From positions 81,740-145,739 of the forward strand of contig CBDBMT010000002.1 in assembly GCA_965207585.1 (NCBI GenBank): DNA of 64,000 nt, written 5' to 3'. The first letter of the stretch is position 1. Each line of letters starts with the position of its first letter. This document shows positions 98 through 64,000 of this stretch, in pieces. The notes beneath the pieces are model-generated. The model saw only the letters and a list, made by a program, of their open reading frames with translations. It did not search any database and was not told the DNA's origin. Made by a program: the position numbers and the translations under genes. Origin of the DNA: Dehalococcoidia bacterium (GTDB lineage Bacteria > Chloroflexota > Dehalococcoidia > Lucifugimonadales > UBA3495).

Positions 98-1024
98 CTA
101 CCACGGGAAGAAACCATCGAAGGGCAGCGCCACCGCGAGGATCGTGAAGGCCAGCAGTTGAGTGGAAATGTATTTGTTGAACGCAAACGCCTTGCCCACC
201 ATGGCCGGCTGGCCGGACTTCACCAGGTTGTTTTCGTACACCAGCAGTATCACGGCCACCGCCCAACCGATGAAATAGAACACGTTCAGCTGCATCCAGA
301 CGCCCAGGACCAGCAGTGCGGCAGCCGCCAGGGTATGCAATACCCGCGTGGTGCGGATGGCGTTGCGAACCCCGAACCGCGAAGCGATGGAGTTAATCCG
401 GTTGGCGCGGTCAAAGTCAAAGTCCATGCTGCCGTAGATGGTTTCGAAGCCTCCGGCCCACATCATCACCGCGAAGGTGAGCAGCACCGGTTGCCACGTA
501 AGTTCGCCGGTAACACCGATCCACGCGCCGGACGGGGCGATGGAAAGAGCCAATCCCAGCATCAGGCTGCACAGCCACGTGAAGTACTTGGCGAAGGAAT
601 AGAGCACCACGTATGCGGCGGCCACCGGGGAAAGCATCAACGCCAGGGGATTCAGCTGCCAGGCGGCCACGAAAAAGACGGCAGCGCCGGCCCCGGCCAT
701 GGCTCCAATTTCCAGAGGCTTCAGGATACCAGCAGGGATGTGCCGGCCCGCCGTGCGTGGGTTGCGGGCATCCTCACGGGCGTTGATTATGCGGTTGGCG
801 GACATGCCCAGGGTCCGCACTCCCAGGAACGCCAGGGTGATCCAGATGAAAGCGTGCCAGCCCGGCCATCCGCTCCCGCCCGAAACGTGCGACGCCAGCA
901 CCATGCCGATGTAACCAAACGGCATGGCGAACAGCGACTCCGAGATGTTGATCGCGTTCAGGTAGTGTGGAACCTTGCCCACCACCACGCGGAAAGGGCC
1001 GGGGTGTGCCGGTGCGTTGTGCAT
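98..1024 (-). CDS. ubiA: UbiA-family aromatic prenyltransferase (4-hydroxybenzoate polyprenyltransferase-like), polytopic membrane protein
   Basis: ORF 98..1243 trimmed to the ATG at 1022-1024 (MHNAPAH...). Many hydrophobic helices. Prenyl-diphosphate motif ANRIINAREDARNPRTAGRHIPAG is typical of UbiA-type enzymes. A UbiD-family gene lies nearby. Confidence 0.8.
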   Translation of the reverse strand: MHNAPAHPGPFRVVVGKVPHYLNAINISESLFAMPFGYIGMVLASHVSGGSGWPGWHAFIWITLAFLGVRTLGMSANRIINAREDARNPRTAGRHIPAGILKPLEIGAMAGAGAAVFFVAAWQLNPLALMLSPVAAAYVVLYSFAKYFTWLCSLMLGLALSIAPSGAWIGVTGELTWQPVLLTFAVMMWAGGFETIYGSMDFDFDRANRINSIASRFGVRNAIRTTRVLHTLAAAALLVLGVWMQLNVFYFIGWAVAVILLVYENNLVKSGQPAMVGKAFAFNKYISTQLLAFTILAVALPFDGFFPW

Positions 1025-1069
1025 AACGTCATCATGGTAACATAGCCCCCTGATTATCAGAGATTGACG

Positions 1070-1270
1070 ATGCCCAAAGTGAGAGAAGCCATACGGATCG
1101 TCGAGCGAGACGGCTGGTGGCTTGACCGGATGAACGGCAGCCACCGCGTCTTCAAGCACCCTGTAAAACCCGGAACGGTGACTATTCCAGGCCACCCGAG
1201 TGACGATTTGAAGATAAAAACTTGGCGAAGCATCTTGCGGCAAGCTGGTCTTCAGGGGAGGAGACGATGA
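1070..1270 (+). CDS. hicA: HicA-family toxin (mRNA interferase, type II TA)
   Basis: MPKVREAIRIVERDGWWLDRMNGSHRVFKHP...TIPGHPSDDLKIKTWRSILRQAGL fits the HicA/YcfA pattern. Its stop overlaps the next ATG (ATGA at 1267-1270). Confidence 0.8.
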   Translation: MPKVREAIRIVERDGWWLDRMNGSHRVFKHPVKPGTVTIPGHPSDDLKIKTWRSILRQAGLQGRRR

Positions 1271-1614
1271 AATTGACCTACGCAGTGGTCTTTGAGCAAA
1301 CGCCTAACAACTACTGCGCTTACGTGCCAGACCTGCCCGGCTGTATCTCCACGCACAAAACTTGGGATGGCATCCAGGCAATGATCAAAGAGGCCATGGC
1401 CCTCCACATTGAGGTTTCGCACGAGTACGGCGACCCCATTCCGCCGCCGCAAATGTCCGTGGAACAGGCCCTTGAATACCACCGTTCACAGCCCAACGAC
1501 TACGGCGGGTACTTTCCTGCCCCCGAACCGGACGAAGACGACGAACCCGCCGCCGTTCTCGAGGTTGAGGTCGAGGTCAACCTGGAGACTGCGCCGACAG
1601 CAACCGCGGATTGA
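1267..1614 (+). CDS. hicB: HicB-family antitoxin
   Basis: MKLTYAVVFEQTPNNYCAYVPDLPGCISTHKTWDGIQAMIKEAMALHIE is the HicB/UPF0150 N-domain pattern. Acidic C-tail. Translationally coupled to hicA. Confidence 0.75.
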   Translation: MKLTYAVVFEQTPNNYCAYVPDLPGCISTHKTWDGIQAMIKEAMALHIEVSHEYGDPIPPPQMSVEQALEYHRSQPNDYGGYFPAPEPDEDDEPAAVLEVEVEVNLETAPTATAD

Positions 1615-1632
1615 TGCGCCCTTCTCGGAGCT

Positions 1633-3105
1633 TCAGTAACCGGGCGTCGGAATGATGTCGTCAAGCCCCAGATCGCTCCACCGCGCCGAGACCCGCTCAC
1701 GGATCTCCCGGCTCATTTCGATGTCCGGCGGCCACTCGCGATGGTAGCCTTCCTGCGGCCCCTTCCGGGTGGCGTCGATGCCGACCTTGCTGCCGAAACG
1801 CGGCGTCGGCGACGCTACGTCCAAGTCGTCGATGGGGCCATCGACCAGGACGAGATCGGTGGCAGGGTTGATGTTGTTGGCCACCCGCCATGCCACCTCC
1901 GAAGGGTTCTGCACGTCCACGAAGTCGTCCACGACCACGATCACCTTGGTCAGGCTGAGCAGTCCCAAACCCCACAGGCCGTACATCACCTTGCGAGCGT
2001 GTCCCGGGTACTCCTTCTTCATCGACACCAGCACCAGGTTATGGAAAATGCCTTCCGCGGGCATGTTGATATCGACGACTTCCGGCAGGATGAGACGAAT
2101 CAGCGGCAGGAACACGCGCTCGGTAACCTTGCCCATCCAGTAGTCCTCGGTGGGCGGGCGTCCCACGAAGGTGGTGGGGTAGATGGGATTGTGGCGGCGG
2201 GTGATGGTGGTCACGTGGAACACCGGGTAGGGCTCGGCCAGGGAGTAGTAGCCGGTGTGATCACCAAATGGTCCCTCGGTTCTCTCCTCGCCGGGAGTGA
2301 CGTACCCTTCCAGGACAATCTCGGCATGAGCCGGAACCCTCAGGTCCACTGACACCGCCTGGGCCAACTCGACCCCTTCATCGCGGATGAAGCCGACCAG
2401 CACCATCTCGTCGATGTCCGGCGGAAGAGGAGCTGACCCCGTCCAAATAGACGCCGGATCGCCGCCCAGCGCAACCGCCACCTCGAGTTTCTCCGCGCTG
2501 GCCCGGTAATGCCGTGCTCCCACCTTGTGGGTCTGCCAGTGCATGCCGGTGGTGTTCCGGTCGAACACCTGCATTCGATAGATGCCGTAGTTCTGCGTGC
2601 CGGTCCCGGGATCCTTGGTGATCACCAGCGGCAGGGTGATATACGGGCCGGCGTCCATCGGCCAGCACTTGATGATCGGCAGACTGTACAGGTCGACGTC
2701 CTCGCCGGAAAGCACGACCTGCTGGCAGGGCGGATTGCTGATGGTCTTGGGCTGGTAAGCCCCGACATGAACCAAACGTCCCAGGGTGCGCAGCTTGTTC
2801 AGCACTCCCTGGGGAGGGCCGCCCTGCACCATCTCGATCATGGCTTCAAGGCGGCCGGCGAGGCTGTCCGCGTTTTCGACCTCCAGCGCCCAGTTCATGC
2901 GCCGCTCGGAGCAGAACAGGTTGATGGCCACGGGCATGTCGTGGCCAACCACGTTCTCGAACAGTAGTGCAGGCCCGTCGGCTCGCAGAGAGCGATGGGC
3001 TATTTCAGTCATCTCGAGCTCCGTGCTTACCGGAGCGGAGATGCGCCGCAGGTCGCCTTTGCTTTCGAGAAAGGCGATAAACTCGCGAAGGTCCCGGTAT
3101 GGCAT
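1633..3105 (-). CDS. ubiD: UbiD-family (prenylated-FMN dependent) decarboxylase
   Basis: 490 aa. N-terminus MPYRDLREFIAFLESKGDLRRI and ...PLVITKDPGTGTQNYGIYRMQV...WQTHKVGARHY are hallmark UbiD-family stretches. Confidence 0.9.
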   Translation of the reverse strand: MPYRDLREFIAFLESKGDLRRISAPVSTELEMTEIAHRSLRADGPALLFENVVGHDMPVAINLFCSERRMNWALEVENADSLAGRLEAMIEMVQGGPPQGVLNKLRTLGRLVHVGAYQPKTISNPPCQQVVLSGEDVDLYSLPIIKCWPMDAGPYITLPLVITKDPGTGTQNYGIYRMQVFDRNTTGMHWQTHKVGARHYRASAEKLEVAVALGGDPASIWTGSAPLPPDIDEMVLVGFIRDEGVELAQAVSVDLRVPAHAEIVLEGYVTPGEERTEGPFGDHTGYYSLAEPYPVFHVTTITRRHNPIYPTTFVGRPPTEDYWMGKVTERVFLPLIRLILPEVVDINMPAEGIFHNLVLVSMKKEYPGHARKVMYGLWGLGLLSLTKVIVVVDDFVDVQNPSEVAWRVANNINPATDLVLVDGPIDDLDVASPTPRFGSKVGIDATRKGPQEGYHREWPPDIEMSREIRERVSARWSDLGLDDIIPTPGY

Positions 3106-3158
3106 GGCGGTCGCGTTGGCCTCAAGTCGGCAACGACACTGAGGCCAGGACGCCGGCC

Positions 3159-3476
3159 TCAGGAATTTCGCATTTGGCTAAAGCAATCGCTGCAATATAC
3201 CGGTCGGTCGCCGCGGGGGCGGAAGGGCACGGTTGCGTCGACGCCGCAGTTGCTGCAAACGATGGGGAAGCTTTCGCGCTGGCCTCCACCGAACCCGCCG
3301 CCGCCACCGCCGCCGAAGTTGTCACGGGGCTGGCCTCGCCGAGCGTTCCGGCACGAAACGCACCGTTTCGGATAGTTGGTGAAGCCGCGCGAGGCATAGA
3401 ATTCCTGCTCGCCTACGGTGAAGAGAAACTCGGCTCCGCAGTCGCTGCATTCAAGGGTCATGTCGGAAAGGGCCAC
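3159..3476 (-). CDS. Small zinc-ribbon protein (two CxxC...CxxC units joined by a poly-Gly linker; zf-trcl-like)
   Basis: GTG start at 3476 preceded by GGAGG. CSDCGAEFLFTVGEQEFYASRGFTNYPKRCVSCR, then GGGGGGGFGGG, then CSNCG...CSDCF. Confidence 0.6.
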   Translation of the reverse strand: MALSDMTLECSDCGAEFLFTVGEQEFYASRGFTNYPKRCVSCRNARRGQPRDNFGGGGGGGFGGGQRESFPIVCSNCGVDATVPFRPRGDRPVYCSDCFSQMRNS

Positions 3477-3701
3477 GGTTCATCCTCCGGCCTGGTTGGT
3501 AATCACGGTGCACACGCAAGGTCTGTTTCGTCGGGCACGGCGATTACAATACCCAAGGAAGGAGGACCGGCGCAATTTTGCTGCCATTACTATACTGGCA
3601 TCAACGGCGGCAAACAACGATTTTCACCGCCTGAATCGGAAAATCGCTGGTTTCGGCGCCGATGCCGAGCCCATTTTGGGAGCGCATCACCCAGTTCCAG
3701 T

Positions 3702-4136
3702 TTACGCGGGTTCTGCCACGAAAACGGGTATCGTCCTGGAAGTGCGCCCCTGGTATTCCTCGTAAGGAGGGAATGCCTCTACGGAAGCTGCCCACAGCCG
3801 GGCCCGTTCGTCCGGGTCGGTGACCTCGCGGACACGCATGGAATACACGTCCGTCTCGTCCTGGATTTCAACATCGGCGTCGGCGCGCAGGTTGTACACC
3901 CAAACGGGATTGCGCGGCGCGCCGCCCTGCGACCCCACCAGCACGTAAGCGTCGCCGACCTTCACGCGCATCAGCGGGGTTTTGCGGACCGCCCCGGTCT
4001 TGTTGCCGCGGTTGGTAACAATGATCACGGGCAAGCCCGTCTCACGCAGGGTGGTCCCCTCGGTGCCGCCGCTGCTTTCGTACAACTCCACCTGCTCTCG
4101 CACCCAATCCCGGGTCGACGGAATGTATTCGGCCAT
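3702..4136 (-). CDS. Deazaflavin (F420H2)-dependent nitroreductase/quinone reductase family protein (DDN-like, PF04075-type)
   Basis: 144 aa. ...VIIVTNRGNKTGAVRKTPLMRV...VLVGSQGGAPRNPVWVYNLRADADVEIQ...RTIPVFV matches the DDN split-barrel family pattern. Confidence 0.8.
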   Translation of the reverse strand: MAEYIPSTRDWVREQVELYESSGGTEGTTLRETGLPVIIVTNRGNKTGAVRKTPLMRVKVGDAYVLVGSQGGAPRNPVWVYNLRADADVEIQDETDVYSMRVREVTDPDERARLWAASVEAFPPYEEYQGRTSRTIPVFVAEPA

Positions 4137-12069: not shown

Positions 12070-12146
12070 CGCCGATGTAGCTCAGCCGGAAGAGCAGCGG
12101 TTTCGTAAACCGCAGGTCAAGGGTTCGAGTCCCTTCATCGGCTCCA
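12070..12146 (+). tRNA. tRNA-Thr (anticodon CGU), CCA encoded
   Basis: Hand-folded cloverleaf. Acceptor gccgatg/catcggc, D-arm gctc..gagc, anticodon stem gcggt/accgc with loop ttCGTaa (12103-12105), T-arm agggg-ttcgagt-ccctt, then discriminator t and cca. Confidence 0.9.
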
Positions 12147-46015: not shown

Positions 46016-46387
46016 ATGAAAAGCGCTCTCGGACCGTCACGGAGTCCCGATCAGGTCTGCACGGATGTCGCCGTTGGCCTCTTGGGGTTGGTGGGTGTTG
46101 GCGCAACCCTGGTCAGCGTTGGCGCCATTACTGCTGCGACGTACCTGGCGATTGTGATGTACGACCCGTCCCTGGGAGGGAGGGATTTTGCTGACTTTGG
46201 CATCGCCGGCCTGGTTGGACTTGTAACCGGCGCTGGCATTACGGTTACGGTGCTTGCCACCGTTTTGCACCATAATCGTAACCTGGGCGATTACAAGAAG
46301 ATTATCGGCACGTCGGCAGTGATGATTGGGTTGGCAACTGTCGCCACACCGGTATTTGTTGCTATCTTGAAAATCTCAGGATCTTGA
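46016..46387 (+). CDS. Small multi-TM membrane protein (hypothetical)
   Basis: 123 aa with 3-4 Gly/Ala/Val-rich hydrophobic segments. No SD. Confidence 0.35.
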   Translation: MKSALGPSRSPDQVCTDVAVGLLGLVGVGATLVSVGAITAATYLAIVMYDPSLGGRDFADFGIAGLVGLVTGAGITVTVLATVLHHNRNLGDYKKIIGTSAVMIGLATVATPVFVAILKISGS

Positions 46388-46461
46388 TTGCCGGACTGTT
46401 CTGTCATGGCGAAGGCTTTGCAGCATTGCAATTCGTCCGGAGTGTGGAGTGTGGTGAAGTC

Positions 46462-47259
46462 ATGACCGCAGCCACCTGCGACCCACGCGCGCTGAGCGTA
46501 GCGCAAGCCGTGCACGAGCGGGAGCAGCCGCTGGCTACCATCCTGTTCGGCTCCCGGGCCCGGGGCGACTACGAAGAACGTCGCTCCGATATTGACATCA
46601 TGTTGGTGCAGGCCGAAGAGCCTGAAGGAGAGTACAAAGGCTCGGTTGAGGAGTGGGCCCAAGGCGTCGTACAGGCCGCCTACGGGCGTCGGGTGCCAGT
46701 TCAATTGGTCTGGTTATCGCAGCAGAGATTCAGCGAGGGCAAGCGGTACATCAACCACATCGCTGCCCAGGCTCTGCTCGACGGTGTAATCATGACGCAA
46801 AATCCGGAGGACTACCACAATCGCAATGCGGACGATGAGGAAGCGGAGTACGAGTACGACTGGACACCCTACGATGAACGGATGCGCCACGCCGAAGCGC
46901 ACCTGGAAGCATTTGTCTTGTGCGTGGAAAATGGGATGAACGATTTAATAATCGGCCAACAGGCGCAGAACACGCTGGGACACGGAATGAAAGCCCTGCT
47001 GGAAGCTCACCGCGTCAGATACCAGCGCACCCACAACATAGGCAACTTGCTGGGCCATGTCAGGCATATTGACCCTGAACTCCGCGAATTCGCTATCAGT
47101 ATAGCCCCGGACGTCTATACCAAGTACGCCGGCGAGCAGGCGTATGAATTGTCCGAGCCTTTCCTCACTGACCAGCCCGACTATCGGGAGCGAACCGTTG
47201 CCGACGCTCAGCGCATCATCCACCGTGCCCGGGAAGTGCGGCAAAGCCGTACTGATTAG
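46462..47259 (+). CDS. Fused nucleotidyltransferase (MNT-like) + HEPN-domain protein
   Basis: Trimmed to the ATG at 46462. N-terminal ILFGSRARGDYEERRSDIDIMLV (GSxxRG...DxD). C-terminal ...LEAHRVRYQRTHNIGNLLGHV (Rx4H / THxL HEPN motif). Confidence 0.7.
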   Translation: MTAATCDPRALSVAQAVHEREQPLATILFGSRARGDYEERRSDIDIMLVQAEEPEGEYKGSVEEWAQGVVQAAYGRRVPVQLVWLSQQRFSEGKRYINHIAAQALLDGVIMTQNPEDYHNRNADDEEAEYEYDWTPYDERMRHAEAHLEAFVLCVENGMNDLIIGQQAQNTLGHGMKALLEAHRVRYQRTHNIGNLLGHVRHIDPELREFAISIAPDVYTKYAGEQAYELSEPFLTDQPDYRERTVADAQRIIHRAREVRQSRTD

Positions 47260-47325: not shown

Positions 47326-47352
47326 ACTAATTTGAAAATGGAGGCTCAACCC

Positions 47353-48873
47353 ATGGCCACCCGTTCCTTTGCCGGCACCGTCAACGCGCCGGACTTCCCT
47401 ACCAACGTTGAGTGGATCAACACCGACCGGCCGCTGAGCATGGCGGACCTGCGGGGCAAGCTCGTCGTGCTGGATTTCTGGACCTACTGTTGAGTAAACT
47501 GCATGCACGTGTTTCCGCAGTTGCGGAAAATGGAAGAGAAGTACGCCGACGAGCTGGTGGTCATCGGGGTCCACTCCGCCAAGTTCCCCAATGAAAAGTA
47601 CGCCGACAACGTGCTGCTGGCGGCCCAGCGATACGAGCTGAAGCACCCCATCGTCAACGACGCCGAGTTCGAGGTCTGGCGGCAGTACGCCTGCCGCGCC
47701 TGGCCGACGCTGATGTTCGTCGACCCCGAGGGCAAGGTCATCGGCAAGCATGAGGGCGAACTGCCCCTTGAGGCTTTCGACGACTTGCTGGGCCGCATGA
47801 TCGCCGAGTTCGACGAGAAGGGCATGATCGACCGCCGTGACCTGGGCCTCGTACCCGAGGCTGTTGAAGAGTCAGCGTTAGCGTTCCCCGGCAAGGTGCT
47901 GGCCGACGCACCCGGCAATAGACTCTTCATCGCCGACACCAACCACAACCGTATCGTCATTACCGATCTGGACGGGCAAGTACTGGCGGTTATCGGTTCA
48001 GGCGCCGAGGATTTTGCCGACGGCAACTACGCCGCCGCGGCGTTCAACCATCCCCAGGGCATGGAACTCCTGGGCGATATTCTGTACGTCGCAGATACAG
48101 AGAACCACGCCATTCGACGGGTCGATCTGGCCAACGGCACGGTGGACACCATCGCCGGCACGGGGGAGCAAGGACACGACCGGCGCGCCCAGGGTACCGG
48201 ACGCCAGGTTGCCCTCAGCAGCCCGTGGGATCTGGCGCATCACGACGGCACGCTGTACATCGCCATGGCCGGAATCCATCAGCTGTGGCGCATGTCCCTG
48301 GCTGACGGGATGGTGTGTCCCCACGCCGGCACGGGCGGAGAGAATATCGACAACGGCCCGTTGGCTCAGGCGACGCTGGCCCAGCCCAGCGGTATCGTCG
48401 TGGGCAAAGACCGGGGCGACAACCCGATCCTGTATTTCGCAGACTCGGAAACCAGCAGCGTGCGGAGCGCCGGCATCGATCCGGTGACCGGTCGCGTAGC
48501 GACGCTGGTAGGCATCGACCTGTTCGCTTTTGGCGACCGGGATGGCGTGGAGCATCATGTCCGGCTCCAGCACCCCATCGGCATCGAATGGCATAAGGGT
48601 GAGCTGTTCATCGCCGACACCTACAATCACAAGATCAAGAAGGTCCTGCCGCTGACCCGCTCCGTGCAGACGGTTCTGGGTTCGGGAGCGATGGGTCTGC
48701 ACGACGGCGCCAGCAGGTTGGCCACCTTCAGCGAGCCCAGCGGACTGAGTTTCGCCAGGTTCGACGACGGCCGGGAACCGCTGCTGTTCATTGCCGACAC
48801 CAACAACCACGCTATCCGTGTAGCAGACCTGCAGGCTGATGAGGTCAGAACTCTCGAAATTCGCGGGTTGTAA
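47353..48873 (+). CDS. Thioredoxin-fold (redoxin) + NHL-repeat protein with an in-frame TGA at 47491-47493 read as selenocysteine (U-V-N-C redox motif); 506 aa
   Basis: GGAGG at 47340-47344 and ATG at 47353. Translation ...[12 protein letters not shown][TGA][12 protein letters not shown]... is continuous and in frame with track ORF 47503..48873. The downstream NHL repeats read [25 protein letters not shown] and NNHAIRVAD. Confidence 0.7.
47512..47529 (+). promoter_or_regulatory. Candidate bacterial SECIS hairpin
   Basis: tttccgc-agtt-gcggaaa, a 7-bp perfect stem. 18-nt spacer after the TGA. Apical loop AGUU has G at its second position. Confidence 0.5.
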
Positions 48874-63385: not shown

Positions 63386-64000
63386 ATGGATCTGGAACTG
63401 AACGGCAAGGTGGCAATAGTGGGCGGCGCCAGTCGGGGGCTGGGCCGCGCGTGCTCGGAGGTATTGGCGGAGGAGGGAGCGCGGGTGGCGATGTGCGCGC
63501 GGACTCCATCAGTCCTGGAGCAGGCGGCCGATGAGATACGGGCCGCCACCGGGGCGGATATCTTCACCTACGCTGGCGACCTGGACAACGAGGAGACCAT
63601 CGCCGAACTGGTGGCGCAGACGGCCGCGCACTTCGGGCAGATTGACATCATGGTCAACAATTCGGGAGGGCCGCCGCAAGCCTACGCCAAGGATTCCACC
63701 GAGGAACTCTGGCAAGTCTCCGCCAACCGCTCGCTGTTCTTCTTCGCCCGCATGACCCGTGAGGCCCTGCCGCACCTGCGGGCCCAGGGCGGCGGAAGGA
63801 TCATCAACATCCTGGCCAGCACCGTCTACACTCCCATCCCCAACCTCGCCCTTTCCGCCGCGACGCGCATGGGCGTGATCGGGTTCATGAAGAACCTGGC
63901 CGACGACCTCGGGCACGAGAACATCCTGATCAACAACGTGTGCCCCGGCAGCATCATGTCAGAACGCATGATGGAAAACGTGGAGGACCGGGCTCGCACC
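63386..64000 (+). CDS. SDR-family oxidoreductase, 3' end beyond the window
   Basis: Not in the ORF track because there is no stop within the window. GAGGAGG RBS, then ATG at 63386. MDLELNGKVAIVGGASRGLGRA..., NNSGG, ...CPGSI... Confidence 0.8.
   Translation, partial: MDLELNGKVAIVGGASRGLGRACSEVLAEEGARVAMCARTPSVLEQAADEIRAATGADIFTYAGDLDNEETIAELVAQTAAHFGQIDIMVNNSGGPPQAYAKDSTEELWQVSANRSLFFFARMTREALPHLRAQGGGRIINILASTVYTPIPNLALSAATRMGVIGFMKNLADDLGHENILINNVCPGSIMSERMMENVEDRART

Follow-up and report, generated by a model that had tools for sequence, protein, structure and literature searches.

A probable selenocysteine-containing homologue of NHLRC2 and SOQ1, split at its UGA codon by gene annotation

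NHLRC2, the human FINCA-disease protein, and SOQ1, a plant protein of photoprotection, combine a thioredoxin-like (Trx) domain with an NHL beta-propeller. [quoted passage not shown] SOQ1 has been shown to carry out thiol-disulfide exchange and supports Msr activity, and neither it nor human NHLRC2 is active in the insulin-reduction assay. [quoted passage not shown] Trx plus propeller, without the C-terminal domain, is the usual architecture in bacteria, as noted by Biterova et al. (PMC6107167), so that the absence of this domain does not exclude a bacterial protein from the family, while it matters for function.

Thioredoxin-fold selenoproteins with a UxxC motif are a well-known class, and pairs of selenocysteine (Sec)- and Cys-containing homologues are recognised as pointing to redox cysteines with a catalytic role. 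Members catalogued in 2026 (PMC13188914, Table 1) include a peroxiredoxin (Prx)-like thiol:disulfide oxidoreductase (PF00578), Sec-thioredoxin, a thiol-disulfide isomerase-like protein, and a Redoxin family, each defined by its Trx-type domain alone. The bacterial SECIS (bSECIS) model from the same source (PMC13188914) specifies an apical loop of 3-9 nt, an upper stem of 4-16 bp, a UGA-to-loop distance of 16-37 nt, a G in the first two loop positions (usually then G/U), and a minimum free energy (MFE) of at most -7.5 kcal/mol.

We analysed a 64-kb stretch of DNA from a Dehalococcoidia bacterium (hereafter the window, numbered from its first letter), in which a sequence-only reading had proposed a selenoprotein gene missed by the open reading frame (ORF) track. 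The positions it had assigned to the start codon, the Shine-Dalgarno sequence, the TGA and a downstream hairpin are all confirmed on the sequence, and the features of the locus are as follows.

47340..47344, + strand: Shine-Dalgarno sequence GGAGG, 8 nt before ATG 47353, read from the letters of the sequence
47353..48873, + strand: predicted full-length selenoprotein gene, by translation 506 codons plus stop (ATG 47353 to TAA 48871-48873)
47353..47490, + strand: N-terminal 46 sense codons, covering beta1 and the motif's first Cys, skipped by the ORF track
47491..47493, + strand: predicted Sec codon UGA, residue 47, at the second position of CC(I/V)NC and aligned with Cys
47503..48873, + strand: truncated ORF of the track and of public pipelines, 456 aa from Met-51, without beta1 and without the active-site Sec
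47512..47529, + strand: predicted bacterial SECIS hairpin UUUCCGC/GCGGAAA with loop AGUU, from comparison and folding
47515-47526, + strand: invariant core of the SECIS, CCGCAGUUGCGG, from the alignment of TGA forms

Translation of 47353-48873 encounters a single in-frame TGA, and the frame is open through Met-47503 to the stop. Read-through yields the active-site motif C46-U47-V48-N49-C50, in which the UGA takes the place of the first Cys of the CxxC redox pair; the Trx-like domain occupies approximately residues 1-160 and the propeller approximately residues 175-506, with no C-terminal domain. UGA terminates 16 of the 29 long ORFs in the window, and is therefore not reassigned in the source genome. 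A scan of the 64 kb for TGA codons flanked by open frames and accompanied by both a redox motif and a hairpin of the bSECIS type left only this site as credible, and two scans of the window revealed no other selenoprotein genes. The neighbouring genes are unrelated (an NTase+HEPN protein, a hypothetical protein, PaREP1, and a FAD-binding protein), and no conserved operon partner was found among them.

The predicted protein is a two-domain bacterial NHLRC2/SOQ1 homologue, with a Thioredoxin_8-type Trx domain followed by an NHL propeller. The closest solved structures are those of the SOQ1 lumenal region (7DJJ; residues 11-505 aligned, E = 3e-129) and human NHLRC2 (6GC1; residues 10-502 aligned, E = 1e-113), and the shared architecture is collinear over residues 10-505. 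Residues 174-505 also align to the propeller-only structures 7DJM (E = 1e-80) and 6G7W (E = 1e-66), and by homology the propeller is predicted to be six-bladed. The Pfam NHL family is matched at E = 8.9e-19, and Thioredoxin_8 at residues 35-129 (E = 1e-14, 55 bits); the latter match spans the TGA, and a complete Trx domain therefore requires read-through of this codon. Like NHLRC2 and SOQ1, the protein carries the motif FWTYC-x-(I/V)NC where helix alpha1 starts, and it has their conserved WP(T) region with the cis-Pro (here W117-P118-T119, which is invariant and aligns with SOQ1); it differs from both in having a predicted Sec at the second motif position, where they have Cys. It ends at residue 506, at position 513 of the 667-residue 7DJJ chain, and thus has no counterpart of the SOQ1 C-terminal beta-stranded domain with its own Cys pair; unlike the NHLRC2/SOQ1 comparison set, it also has no HAD domain, transmembrane helix or signal peptide.

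For the comparison across relatives we used the best 80 related species-representative genomes, in an alignment of 83 sequences in all. Orthologues that combine the TGA with the conserved hairpin, for which the sequence-only reading had proposed a search, prove numerous: the codon is TGA at 54 of the 80 species-representative loci (and in one further locus, L001) and TGC or TGT at the other 26, corresponding to 56 and 27 of the 83 aligned sequences. Protein identity among the TGA-bearing species-representative orthologues spans 54-95%. The TGA form is widespread in the Dehalococcoidia/SAR202 genomes examined, is present in Ca. Fervidibacter sacchari as well, and is found in complete genomes (e.g. 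OZ220731.1, ERZ18545484 ptg000508c, and Ca. Fervidibacter sacchari PD1, NZ_CP130454.1). The structure-homologue alignment places the TGA column at the second Cys of the SOQ1 CCINC. The database homologue P0090, SOQ1 and NHLRC2 all read FWTYC-C-(I/V)NC, with Cys in this column, which agrees with the motif FWTYCCxNC that the sequence-only reading had given for Cys-containing homologues; by motif alignment and published numbering (CCINC = residues 89-93; PMC6107167), the human counterpart of residue 47 is Cys-90.

The hairpin of the window begins after an 18-nt spacer and passes every criterion of the bSECIS model, with a 7-bp stem, a 4-nt loop carrying G-U at positions 2-3 (G 47520, U 47521), a TGA-to-loop distance of 25 nt, and an MFE of -9.5 kcal/mol; the compatibility with SECIS rules proposed in the sequence-only reading is thereby upheld, and the lower stem covaries among orthologues. 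Taken alone, this hairpin is weak evidence and statistically not unusual: a 76-nt fold of the window sequence gives z = -0.61, and of the TGA triplets in the window, 8.5% are followed by a hairpin obeying loose bSECIS rules and 4.8% by one of at least 7 bp. Rfam families searched on 47440-47600 at permissive thresholds gave noise only, a negative result of little weight, as Rfam may hold no bacterial SECIS model of such type.

The comparative evidence for the TGA together with the hairpin lies far beyond chance. The 12-nt core CCGCAGUUGCGG is identical in 56 of 56 TGA forms, synonymous sites included, except for one base in L058, and the invariance of CCG CAG UUG CGG at the nucleotide level is restricted to these forms: third-position entropies are 0.00, 0.00, 0.00 and 0.13 bits in TGA forms, versus 0.9-1.7 bits in Cys forms. 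Within the helix, 98.8% of alignment cells are paired, and the nine compensatory cells are matched by none of 500 shuffles; RNAalifold recovers the same helix. The covariation consists of lower-stem variants (UUU/AAA, CUU/AAG, CUG/CAG, CUG/CGG) that come from a few non-Dehalococcoidia lineages, while the four G-C pairs never vary. Mean hairpin MFE is -9.8 kcal/mol in Sec forms versus -0.85 in Cys forms, which have no hairpin with the sole exception of L002, a Cys form that is nested in the Sec clade and retains a fossil hairpin; we read this locus as a recent Sec-to-Cys revertant. Because the RNA constraint of the SECIS core fixes Pro-Gln-Leu-Arg, the protein reads (F/L)PQLR at this position in Sec forms versus (I/L)P(D/N)LK in Cys forms. 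No further credible TGA-associated copies of the core occur in the window or in 1.56 Mb of loci; a core match at 63770-63781 on the minus strand was rejected, and inspection of the translation places it antisense within an apparent SDR-type gene.

With the E. coli fdhF-type and consensus bSECIS, the hairpin shares its nature as a coding-region stem-loop just 3' of a UGA with a small G-U apical loop, and its spacing lies inside the consensus range. It has no primary-sequence resemblance to the fdhF element, and its core is unusually invariant across phyla compared with fdhF-type and consensus elements. Relative to E. coli fdhF, the distance from UGA to loop is probably longer by approximately 7 nt, and a conserved bulged U is absent; a bulge exists only in some orthologues, such as L058.

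Gene callers everywhere yield the shortened product (438-461 aa), and ATG 47503 stands three codons past the TGA, as might fit a pseudogene or N-terminally truncated gene in which the TGA is disabling and any functional product starts at Met-47503. This explanation is extremely improbable, and is effectively refuted by the alignment, in which the same TGA is retained in 56 sequences down to 54% identity. The upstream 46 codons, whose decay in orthologues the sequence-only reading had named as the mark of a truncated pseudogene, are conserved rather than degraded: they are kept in 83 of 83 aligned sequences and, against the ten closest relatives, the upstream 40 codons show dN/dS of 0.05-0.13 at dS of 0.4-1.2 and the sequence downstream of the TGA 0.00-0.09, so that purifying selection acts on both sides of the codon. 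A product beginning at Met-51 would have neither beta1 nor any part of the Trx-fold active-site motif, no Shine-Dalgarno sequence precedes 47503 (a strong one precedes 47353), and residue 51 is Val, Ala, Leu, Ile or His in many orthologues, so that the internal start is not conserved. Since a single base divides TGA from TGC or TGT, an error of sequencing or assembly could in principle have produced the codon; the chance of this is virtually nil, and such an error is excluded because the TGA is common to 56 independent assemblies (55 besides this one), among them long-read complete chromosomes and an isolate genome (L054, NZ_CP130454.1). Moreover, a specific conserved hairpin accompanies the TGA and is missing from true Cys forms. 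The alignment thus indicates that the TGA is genuine and is maintained by selection as a sense codon.

Such a codon might also be recoded without Sec, by near-cognate Trp or Cys read-through, or the locus might produce 46-aa and 456-aa products by termination and reinitiation. Downstream structures in general can stimulate stop-codon read-through, ATG 47503 lies 9 nt past the stop at a spacing compatible with reinitiation, and the evidence for Sec machinery comes from relatives rather than from the window, where tblastn with E. coli SelA, SelB and SelD, ARAGORN and Rfam found no selA, selB, selD or tRNA-Sec (ARAGORN and Rfam returned tRNA-Thr only, plus an unsupported 'tRNA-Arg' inside the selenoprotein gene). 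We nevertheless regard these variants as very unlikely: the UGA falls precisely in the column of a redox Cys, the signature of a Sec/Cys pair; the hairpin fits the SelB-type bSECIS model, apical G-U and spacing included; and reinitiation would depend on the non-conserved internal Met and on an implausible split of the Trx fold. On contig L028, the TGA orthologue has a SelA gene 8 kb away (PF03841; 44% identity to the E. coli protein), and Dehalococcoidia bacterium UBA1141, which carries a TGA orthologue (L014), has a very large reported selenoproteome, with 49 selenoprotein genes listed in BSepDB (PMC13326102). Most sponge-symbiont bins have SelA and SelB together (PMC5649159). Apparent 'selB' matches in L005 and L075 were dismissed, the L005 ORF being LepA/EF4. 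The machinery seen in orthologue-bearing relatives, as SelA on L028 and the UBA1141 selenoproteome, suggests that the lineage decodes Sec.

Region 47353-48873 is thus very probably one gene, encoding a 506-residue selenoprotein homologous to NHLRC2 and SOQ1 in which Sec replaces the second Cys of CC(I/V)NC, giving C-U-V-N-C; the TGA/Cys pairs, the conserved hairpin and the purifying selection support the original interpretation as a missed selenoprotein with a Trx fold and NHL repeats. The sequence places the probable translation start at ATG 47353, behind the GGAGG Shine-Dalgarno. By the established bacterial mechanism, SelB-GTP with Sec-tRNA(Sec) would bind the hairpin at 47512-47529 when the ribosome reaches UGA 47491, and would deliver Sec in place of termination, a step for which the RNA element and its constraint are seen directly in the alignment. 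By homology to 6GC1 and 7DJJ, Sec47 would lie where helix alpha1 of the Trx fold starts, within the cleft that faces the propeller. There it may serve as the attacking nucleophile of a selenol/thiol oxidoreductase, forming a selenenylsulfide with a propeller-held substrate that Cys50 or the vicinal Cys46 would resolve. The precedent of SOQ1 suggests that a partner-protein disulfide or methionine sulfoxide could be reduced; this catalytic role is less sure because NHLRC2 and SOQ1 are inactive in the insulin-reduction assay and because the bacterial protein is without the C-terminal domain bearing the reported Msr activity of SOQ1.

A genuine selenoprotein might instead be a peroxidase, using C-U-x-x-C on hydroperoxides, or a binder of Hg, As or Cu, rather than a protein-disulfide or methionine sulfoxide reductase. 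Pfam AhpC-TSA and Redoxin exceed their cut-offs, T44-x-x-U47 resembles the TxxU motif of catalogued Sec-peroxiredoxins, and several recent vicinal-CU selenoprotein families have been linked to organometallic or metal chemistry. We consider these functions unlikely, while giving them appreciable weight. The best Trx-type match is Thioredoxin_8 (TlpA-ResA-like) rather than Prx, with AhpC-TSA reaching 44 bits versus 55; the best NCBIfam matches are of the ResA/StoA/TlpA type, all below their cut-offs, and no NCBIfam peroxiredoxin model appears at its cut-off. The protein departs from the Prx signature PxxxTxxC, in that the TxxU spacing is present (T44-Y45-C46-U47) but the required Pro at -7 is Leu, and the closest characterised homologue, SOQ1, performs thiol-disulfide exchange. 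For the reductase reading we tentatively propose a wider form: the second Cys of CC(I/V)NC (Cys-90 in NHLRC2) may be the catalytic redox nucleophile family-wide, and the bacterial form a self-sufficient selenol reductase acting on substrates in the propeller cleft, representing an uncatalogued selenoprotein family whose C-U-x-x-C triad is unusual.

The predicted protein has in common with catalogued UxxC selenoproteins the Trx fold, Sec in the first position of UxxC, Sec/Cys homologue pairs, an in-ORF bSECIS directly downstream, and matches to AhpC-TSA, Redoxin and Thioredoxin_8 domains. Unlike them, it adds a 330-residue NHL propeller and has a Cys immediately preceding the Sec (CUxxC); the 'thiol-disulfide isomerase-like' sequences from the Sargasso Sea have a different motif, DWuTWC. 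In mammalian thioredoxin reductase, the vicinal Cys-Sec dyad of the C-terminal Gly-Cys-Sec-Gly can form an eight-membered selenenylsulfide ring. The window protein would share such a dyad, but thioredoxin reductase has an unrelated fold and carries it C-terminally rather than in an active-site helix, whereas the window protein has a third Cys three residues downstream, a classical CxxC-type partner. No entry in the 2026 catalogue of 119 prokaryotic selenoprotein families, compared by entry description, names the Trx+NHL architecture (PMC13188914), 'NHL' is not mentioned in the selenoproteome reviews and catalogue papers searched, and the literature searched makes no mention of a Sec form of the NHLRC2/SOQ1 family. 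The motifs WTYCU, CUINC and CUVNC are absent from the Sargasso Sea and GOS supplementary sequences, of which the GOS set is incomplete. A Trx+NHL selenoprotein may possibly be lumped already under a generic catalogue entry or in BSepDB.

In public records, the N-terminal piece of the locus is a separate 46-aa hypothetical protein, and the C-terminal piece is named 'alkyl hydroperoxide reductase' by NCBI. More than 130 database clusters consist of fragments of 42-48 aa ending in FWTYC. Among the top 120 database homologues, lengths are 436-471 aa and query coverage is approximately 87-91%, with the single exception of P0066, a 344-aa fragment. Public annotation thus splits the gene at the predicted Sec codon in the many relatives examined, and both pieces appear as halves of one selenoprotein. 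This is a systematic mis-annotation, with no curated model to rescue the gene; NCBIfam has no model for the Trx+NHL architecture, and none of its models reached its cut-off.

The locus shows cleanly how an RNA element can mould the sequence of a protein, with Pro-Gln-Leu-Arg in Sec forms against Pro-Asp-Leu-Lys in Cys forms, and a fossil SECIS in the revertant. [quoted passage not shown] Direct biochemical verification should be feasible, because Ca. Fervidibacter sacchari PD1, which we take to be a cultivated strain and which has a complete genome, carries the Sec form. If the second Cys is indeed the nucleophile family-wide, the bacterial selenoenzyme would provide a tractable model for finding the substrate of the family.

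The frame at 47353-48873 is very probably a genuine selenoprotein gene that both the ORF track and public annotation have overlooked. The Shine-Dalgarno motif, start codon, TGA, open frame, hairpin and spacing described in the sequence-only reading were all found to be right when the sequence was re-read, and there is no Shine-Dalgarno motif upstream of Met-47503.

Features of the window, with strand in brackets
46384-47259 (+): nucleotidyltransferase (NTP_transf_2/Polbeta) and HEPN fusion, 291 aa; upstream neighbour
47340-47344 (+): Shine-Dalgarno GGAGG, 8 nt before ATG 47353
47353-48873 (+): Trx-NHL gene, read through; 46 sense codons, TGA 47491-47493, frame open via Met-47503, TAA 48871-48873
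47512-47529 (+): hairpin tttccgc-AGTT-gcggaaa; stem begins 18 nt, and loop 25 nt, past the TGA
48046-48126 (-): tRNA-Arg(gcg), 81 nt, called by ARAGORN; opposite strand inside the NHL-propeller coding region
12071-12146 (+): tRNA-Thr(cgt), the window's only RNA family at the Rfam gathering threshold

The Pfam domain Thioredoxin_8 (residues 35-129, E 1e-14) runs across the TGA, with NHL repeats C-terminal to it (E 8.9e-19). Reassignment of UGA in the source genome is ruled out, since the window uses UGA as a normal terminator more often than any other stop codon, at the end of 16 of 29 long ORFs. The read-through protein, used as a query, retrieves relatives in the thousands; of the best 120, all except one are 436-471 aa long and cover ∼87-91% of the query, one further match being a 344-aa fragment, and these short lengths imply that gene callers everywhere place the start just past the TGA codon. 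The single full-length match among the best 120, database protein P0090, reads FWTYC-C-INC.

Scanning a single genome for each GTDB species yielded 80 loci, in all of which the codon could be aligned. TGA occupies this position in 54, mostly from Dehalococcoidia/SAR202, with other carriers including Ca. Fervidibacter sacchari PD1 (complete genome NZ_CP130454.1), two Rokubacteria, a Gemmataceae bin and a Dormiibacterota bin; the remaining 26 (Blastocatellia and other Acidobacteriota, Latescibacterota, Armatimonadota, and others) have TGC or TGT. Addition of the window and the homologous loci L001 and L002 brings the totals to 56 Sec and 27 Cys forms. The expectation that the TGA column would hold Cys in Cys-type Trx-NHL homologues is borne out by these 27 forms, P0090 (from L002) among them, and by Arabidopsis SOQ1 and human NHLRC2. 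All aligned sequences share a collinear, conserved stretch of 40 N-terminal codons, and dN/dS before the TGA, relative to the ten closest relatives, is 0.05-0.13 (at dS 0.4-1.2), the same selection regime as in the 60 downstream codons; the upstream codons are kept, not degraded. Taken together, the homologue comparisons exclude a pseudogene as well as a sequencing error. This is a single gene whose in-frame UGA is under selection and falls where a redox Cys is expected.

The window's hairpin is by itself weak evidence, because folding of the local sequence gives an ordinary score (z = -0.61) and downstream hairpins accompany 8.5% of all window TGA triplets under loose bSECIS rules (4.8% with a stem of at least 7 bp). 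Two 64-kb scans requiring a TGA with a redox motif, an open frame on either side and a suitable hairpin left TGA 47491-47493 as the sole credible site. A copy of the SECIS core with one mismatch and an AGGU loop (CCGCAGGTGCGG; 63770-63781, minus strand) was judged a chance match; no in-frame TGA stands at a fitting distance from it, and it lies antisense within a plus-strand gene that we take, by eye from its translation, to be SDR-type.

The pattern across loci is far beyond chance: codons +8 to +11 read CCG CAG TTG CGG in the 56 TGA forms, with one exception (CGT in locus L058). Third-position entropies at these Pro, Gln, Leu and Arg codons are 0.00, 0.00, 0.00 and 0.13 bits in Sec forms and 0.9-1.7 bits in Cys forms; flanking codons show 0.5-2.0 bits. 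The 12-nt core folds as CCGC-AGUU-GCGG, usually with a UUU/AAA extension, and over the +18..+42 segment MFE averages -9.8 kcal/mol for Sec forms (-15.0 to -6.5) against -0.85 kcal/mol for Cys forms (-4.5 to 0). In the 56-sequence alignment 98.8% of cells are paired (32-72% in slid registers), outer pairs covary (U-A to C-G six times; U-A to G-C or C-G three times), 0/500 shuffles equalled the alignment in either compensatory cells or covariation score, and RNAalifold recovered the identical helix de novo. The proposed pairing of orthologous TGA codons with a conserved hairpin is found in the 56 Sec forms, and this conserved, covarying, correctly spaced hairpin is specific to UGA forms. Its suggested compatibility with the bacterial SECIS model holds in every particular: a loop of 3-9 nt, a stem of 4-16 bp, G at loop position 1 or 2 with G/U after it, spacing of 16-37 nt and MFE ≤ -7.5 kcal/mol (PMC13188914). 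The protein motif over the core is (F/L)-P-Q-L-R in Sec forms versus (I/L)-P-(D/N)-L-K in Cys forms; the protein bears the mark of the RNA constraint, an unusually clear example of a SECIS shaping a protein's sequence.

Locus L002, which encodes P0090, has TGC, yet its hairpin TTTCCGCAGTTGCGGAAA is complete, and a neighbour-joining tree places it within the Sec clade, the remaining Sec forms clustering together. This topology suggests that the Sec form arose once, long ago, and that L002 is a probable recent Sec-to-Cys reversion bearing a fossil SECIS. The L002 gene (383-1876) is directly followed by a 681-aa Thioredox_DsbH-family gene (1909-3954).

Genes surrounding the window's Trx-NHL gene are unrelated, in agreement with the published absence of operon context. 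Nucleotidyltransferase and HEPN domains, fused in the upstream neighbour, usually form a two-gene toxin-antitoxin-like module; the close relative L001 has a different gene at this position. The tRNA-Arg(gcg) at 48046-48126, over which the Rfam tRNA model gives no match at gathering threshold, is probably a false positive.

No tRNA-Sec, selA, selB or selD was found within the 64-kb window. In the Dehalococcoidia MAG locus L028, selA (814-2187, minus strand) lies ∼8 kb upstream of a TGA-form orthologue; its product is 44% identical to E. coli SelA, matches Pfam SelA, and has among its relatives many Dehalococcoidia proteins annotated as L-seryl-tRNA(Sec) selenium transferase, while neither selB nor tRNA-Sec was seen in this 15-kb locus. 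Dehalococcoidia bacterium UBA1141, whose contig L014 bears the TGA form, is listed, at 49 genes, as one of the ten bacteria richest in selenoproteins (BSepDB; PMC13326102), and most sponge-symbiont bins encode SelA and SelB together (PMC5649159); isolate names suggest that the L005, L006 and L037 MAGs may derive from a similar sponge study. Collectively, the relatives' SelA, UBA1141 and the sponge bins are a good, though indirect, sign of Sec decoding. Assemblies L085 (3,433,791 nt; SelA) and L086 (3,433,739 nt; TGA-form Trx-NHL) come from different ENA samples, differ by 52 nt, and may represent one population genome.

The closest solved structures are the SOQ1 lumenal Trx-like-NHL region (7DJJ, E 3e-129, residues 11-505) and NHLRC2 (6GC1, E 1e-113). 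Both read FWTYCCINC, in which Sec would replace the second Cys in the window protein. NHLRC2 carries CCINC as residues 89-93, where helix alpha1 begins, in a cleft facing the propeller (PMC6107167); Sec47 therefore corresponds to Cys-90 and Cys50 to Cys-93. An invariant W-P-T (residues 117-119) aligns with that of SOQ1 and contains the family's conserved cis-Pro (Pro-163 in NHLRC2; PMC6107167). Unlike SOQ1, the window protein lacks a C-terminal domain and ends with the propeller, the usual bacterial architecture (PMC6107167). The SOQ1 Trx-like domain is redox-active and hands electrons to the C-terminal domain, the lumenal region having methionine-sulfoxide-reductase activity (bioRxiv 10.1101/2024.11.01.621559); NHLRC2 was negative in insulin-reduction assays (PMC6107167; bioRxiv 10.1101/2024.11.01.621559).

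By analogy with the established bacterial pathway, SelB with Sec-tRNA(Sec) would bind the hairpin, and Sec would be inserted at residue 47. Homology suggests a selenol/thiol oxidoreductase in which Sec47 would make the nucleophilic attack on a substrate presented by the propeller cleft, and either Cys50 or its neighbour in the motif, the vicinal Cys46, would resolve the selenenylsulfide. Activity as a peroxidase or in metal binding is a less probable but serious alternative; for the former, the Prx signature is incomplete in the window protein and no curated Prx model matched.

UxxC thioredoxin-fold selenoproteins with an in-ORF SECIS are a well-known kind, and a further such family will not surprise the selenoprotein specialist. 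The sequence-only reading was aware of no characterised Sec form of the Trx-NHL fusion; likewise, this architecture is not named among the 119 families/subfamilies of the 2026 prokaryotic selenoprotein catalogue (PMC13188914), and 'NHL' is not mentioned in the selenoproteome papers searched. The Sargasso 'thiol-disulfide isomerase-like' family has the motif DWuTWC, unlike the WTYCU of Trx-NHL, and the Sargasso and GOS supplements contain no WTYCU sequences. The protein may already be filed, unnoticed, under a broad heading such as 'Prx-like' or 'Redoxin family'. No NCBIfam model reaches cut-off on it; at NCBI the C-terminal pieces go by the name 'alkyl hydroperoxide reductase' and the pieces of 46 aa by 'hypothetical protein', and 'hypothetical proteins' of 42-48 aa, in more than 130 clusters (including P0267-P0386), are the N-terminal fragment, ending ...DFWTYC. 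This split annotation is a systematic artefact across the Chloroflexota metagenome assemblies examined, and recognising the selenoprotein corrects a widespread error. One carrier, Ca. Fervidibacter sacchari PD1, which we take to be a cultivated strain, makes the Sec form accessible in a cultivable organism, and a natural Sec form bears on whether CCINC is catalytic in NHLRC2 and SOQ1, a matter of dispute.
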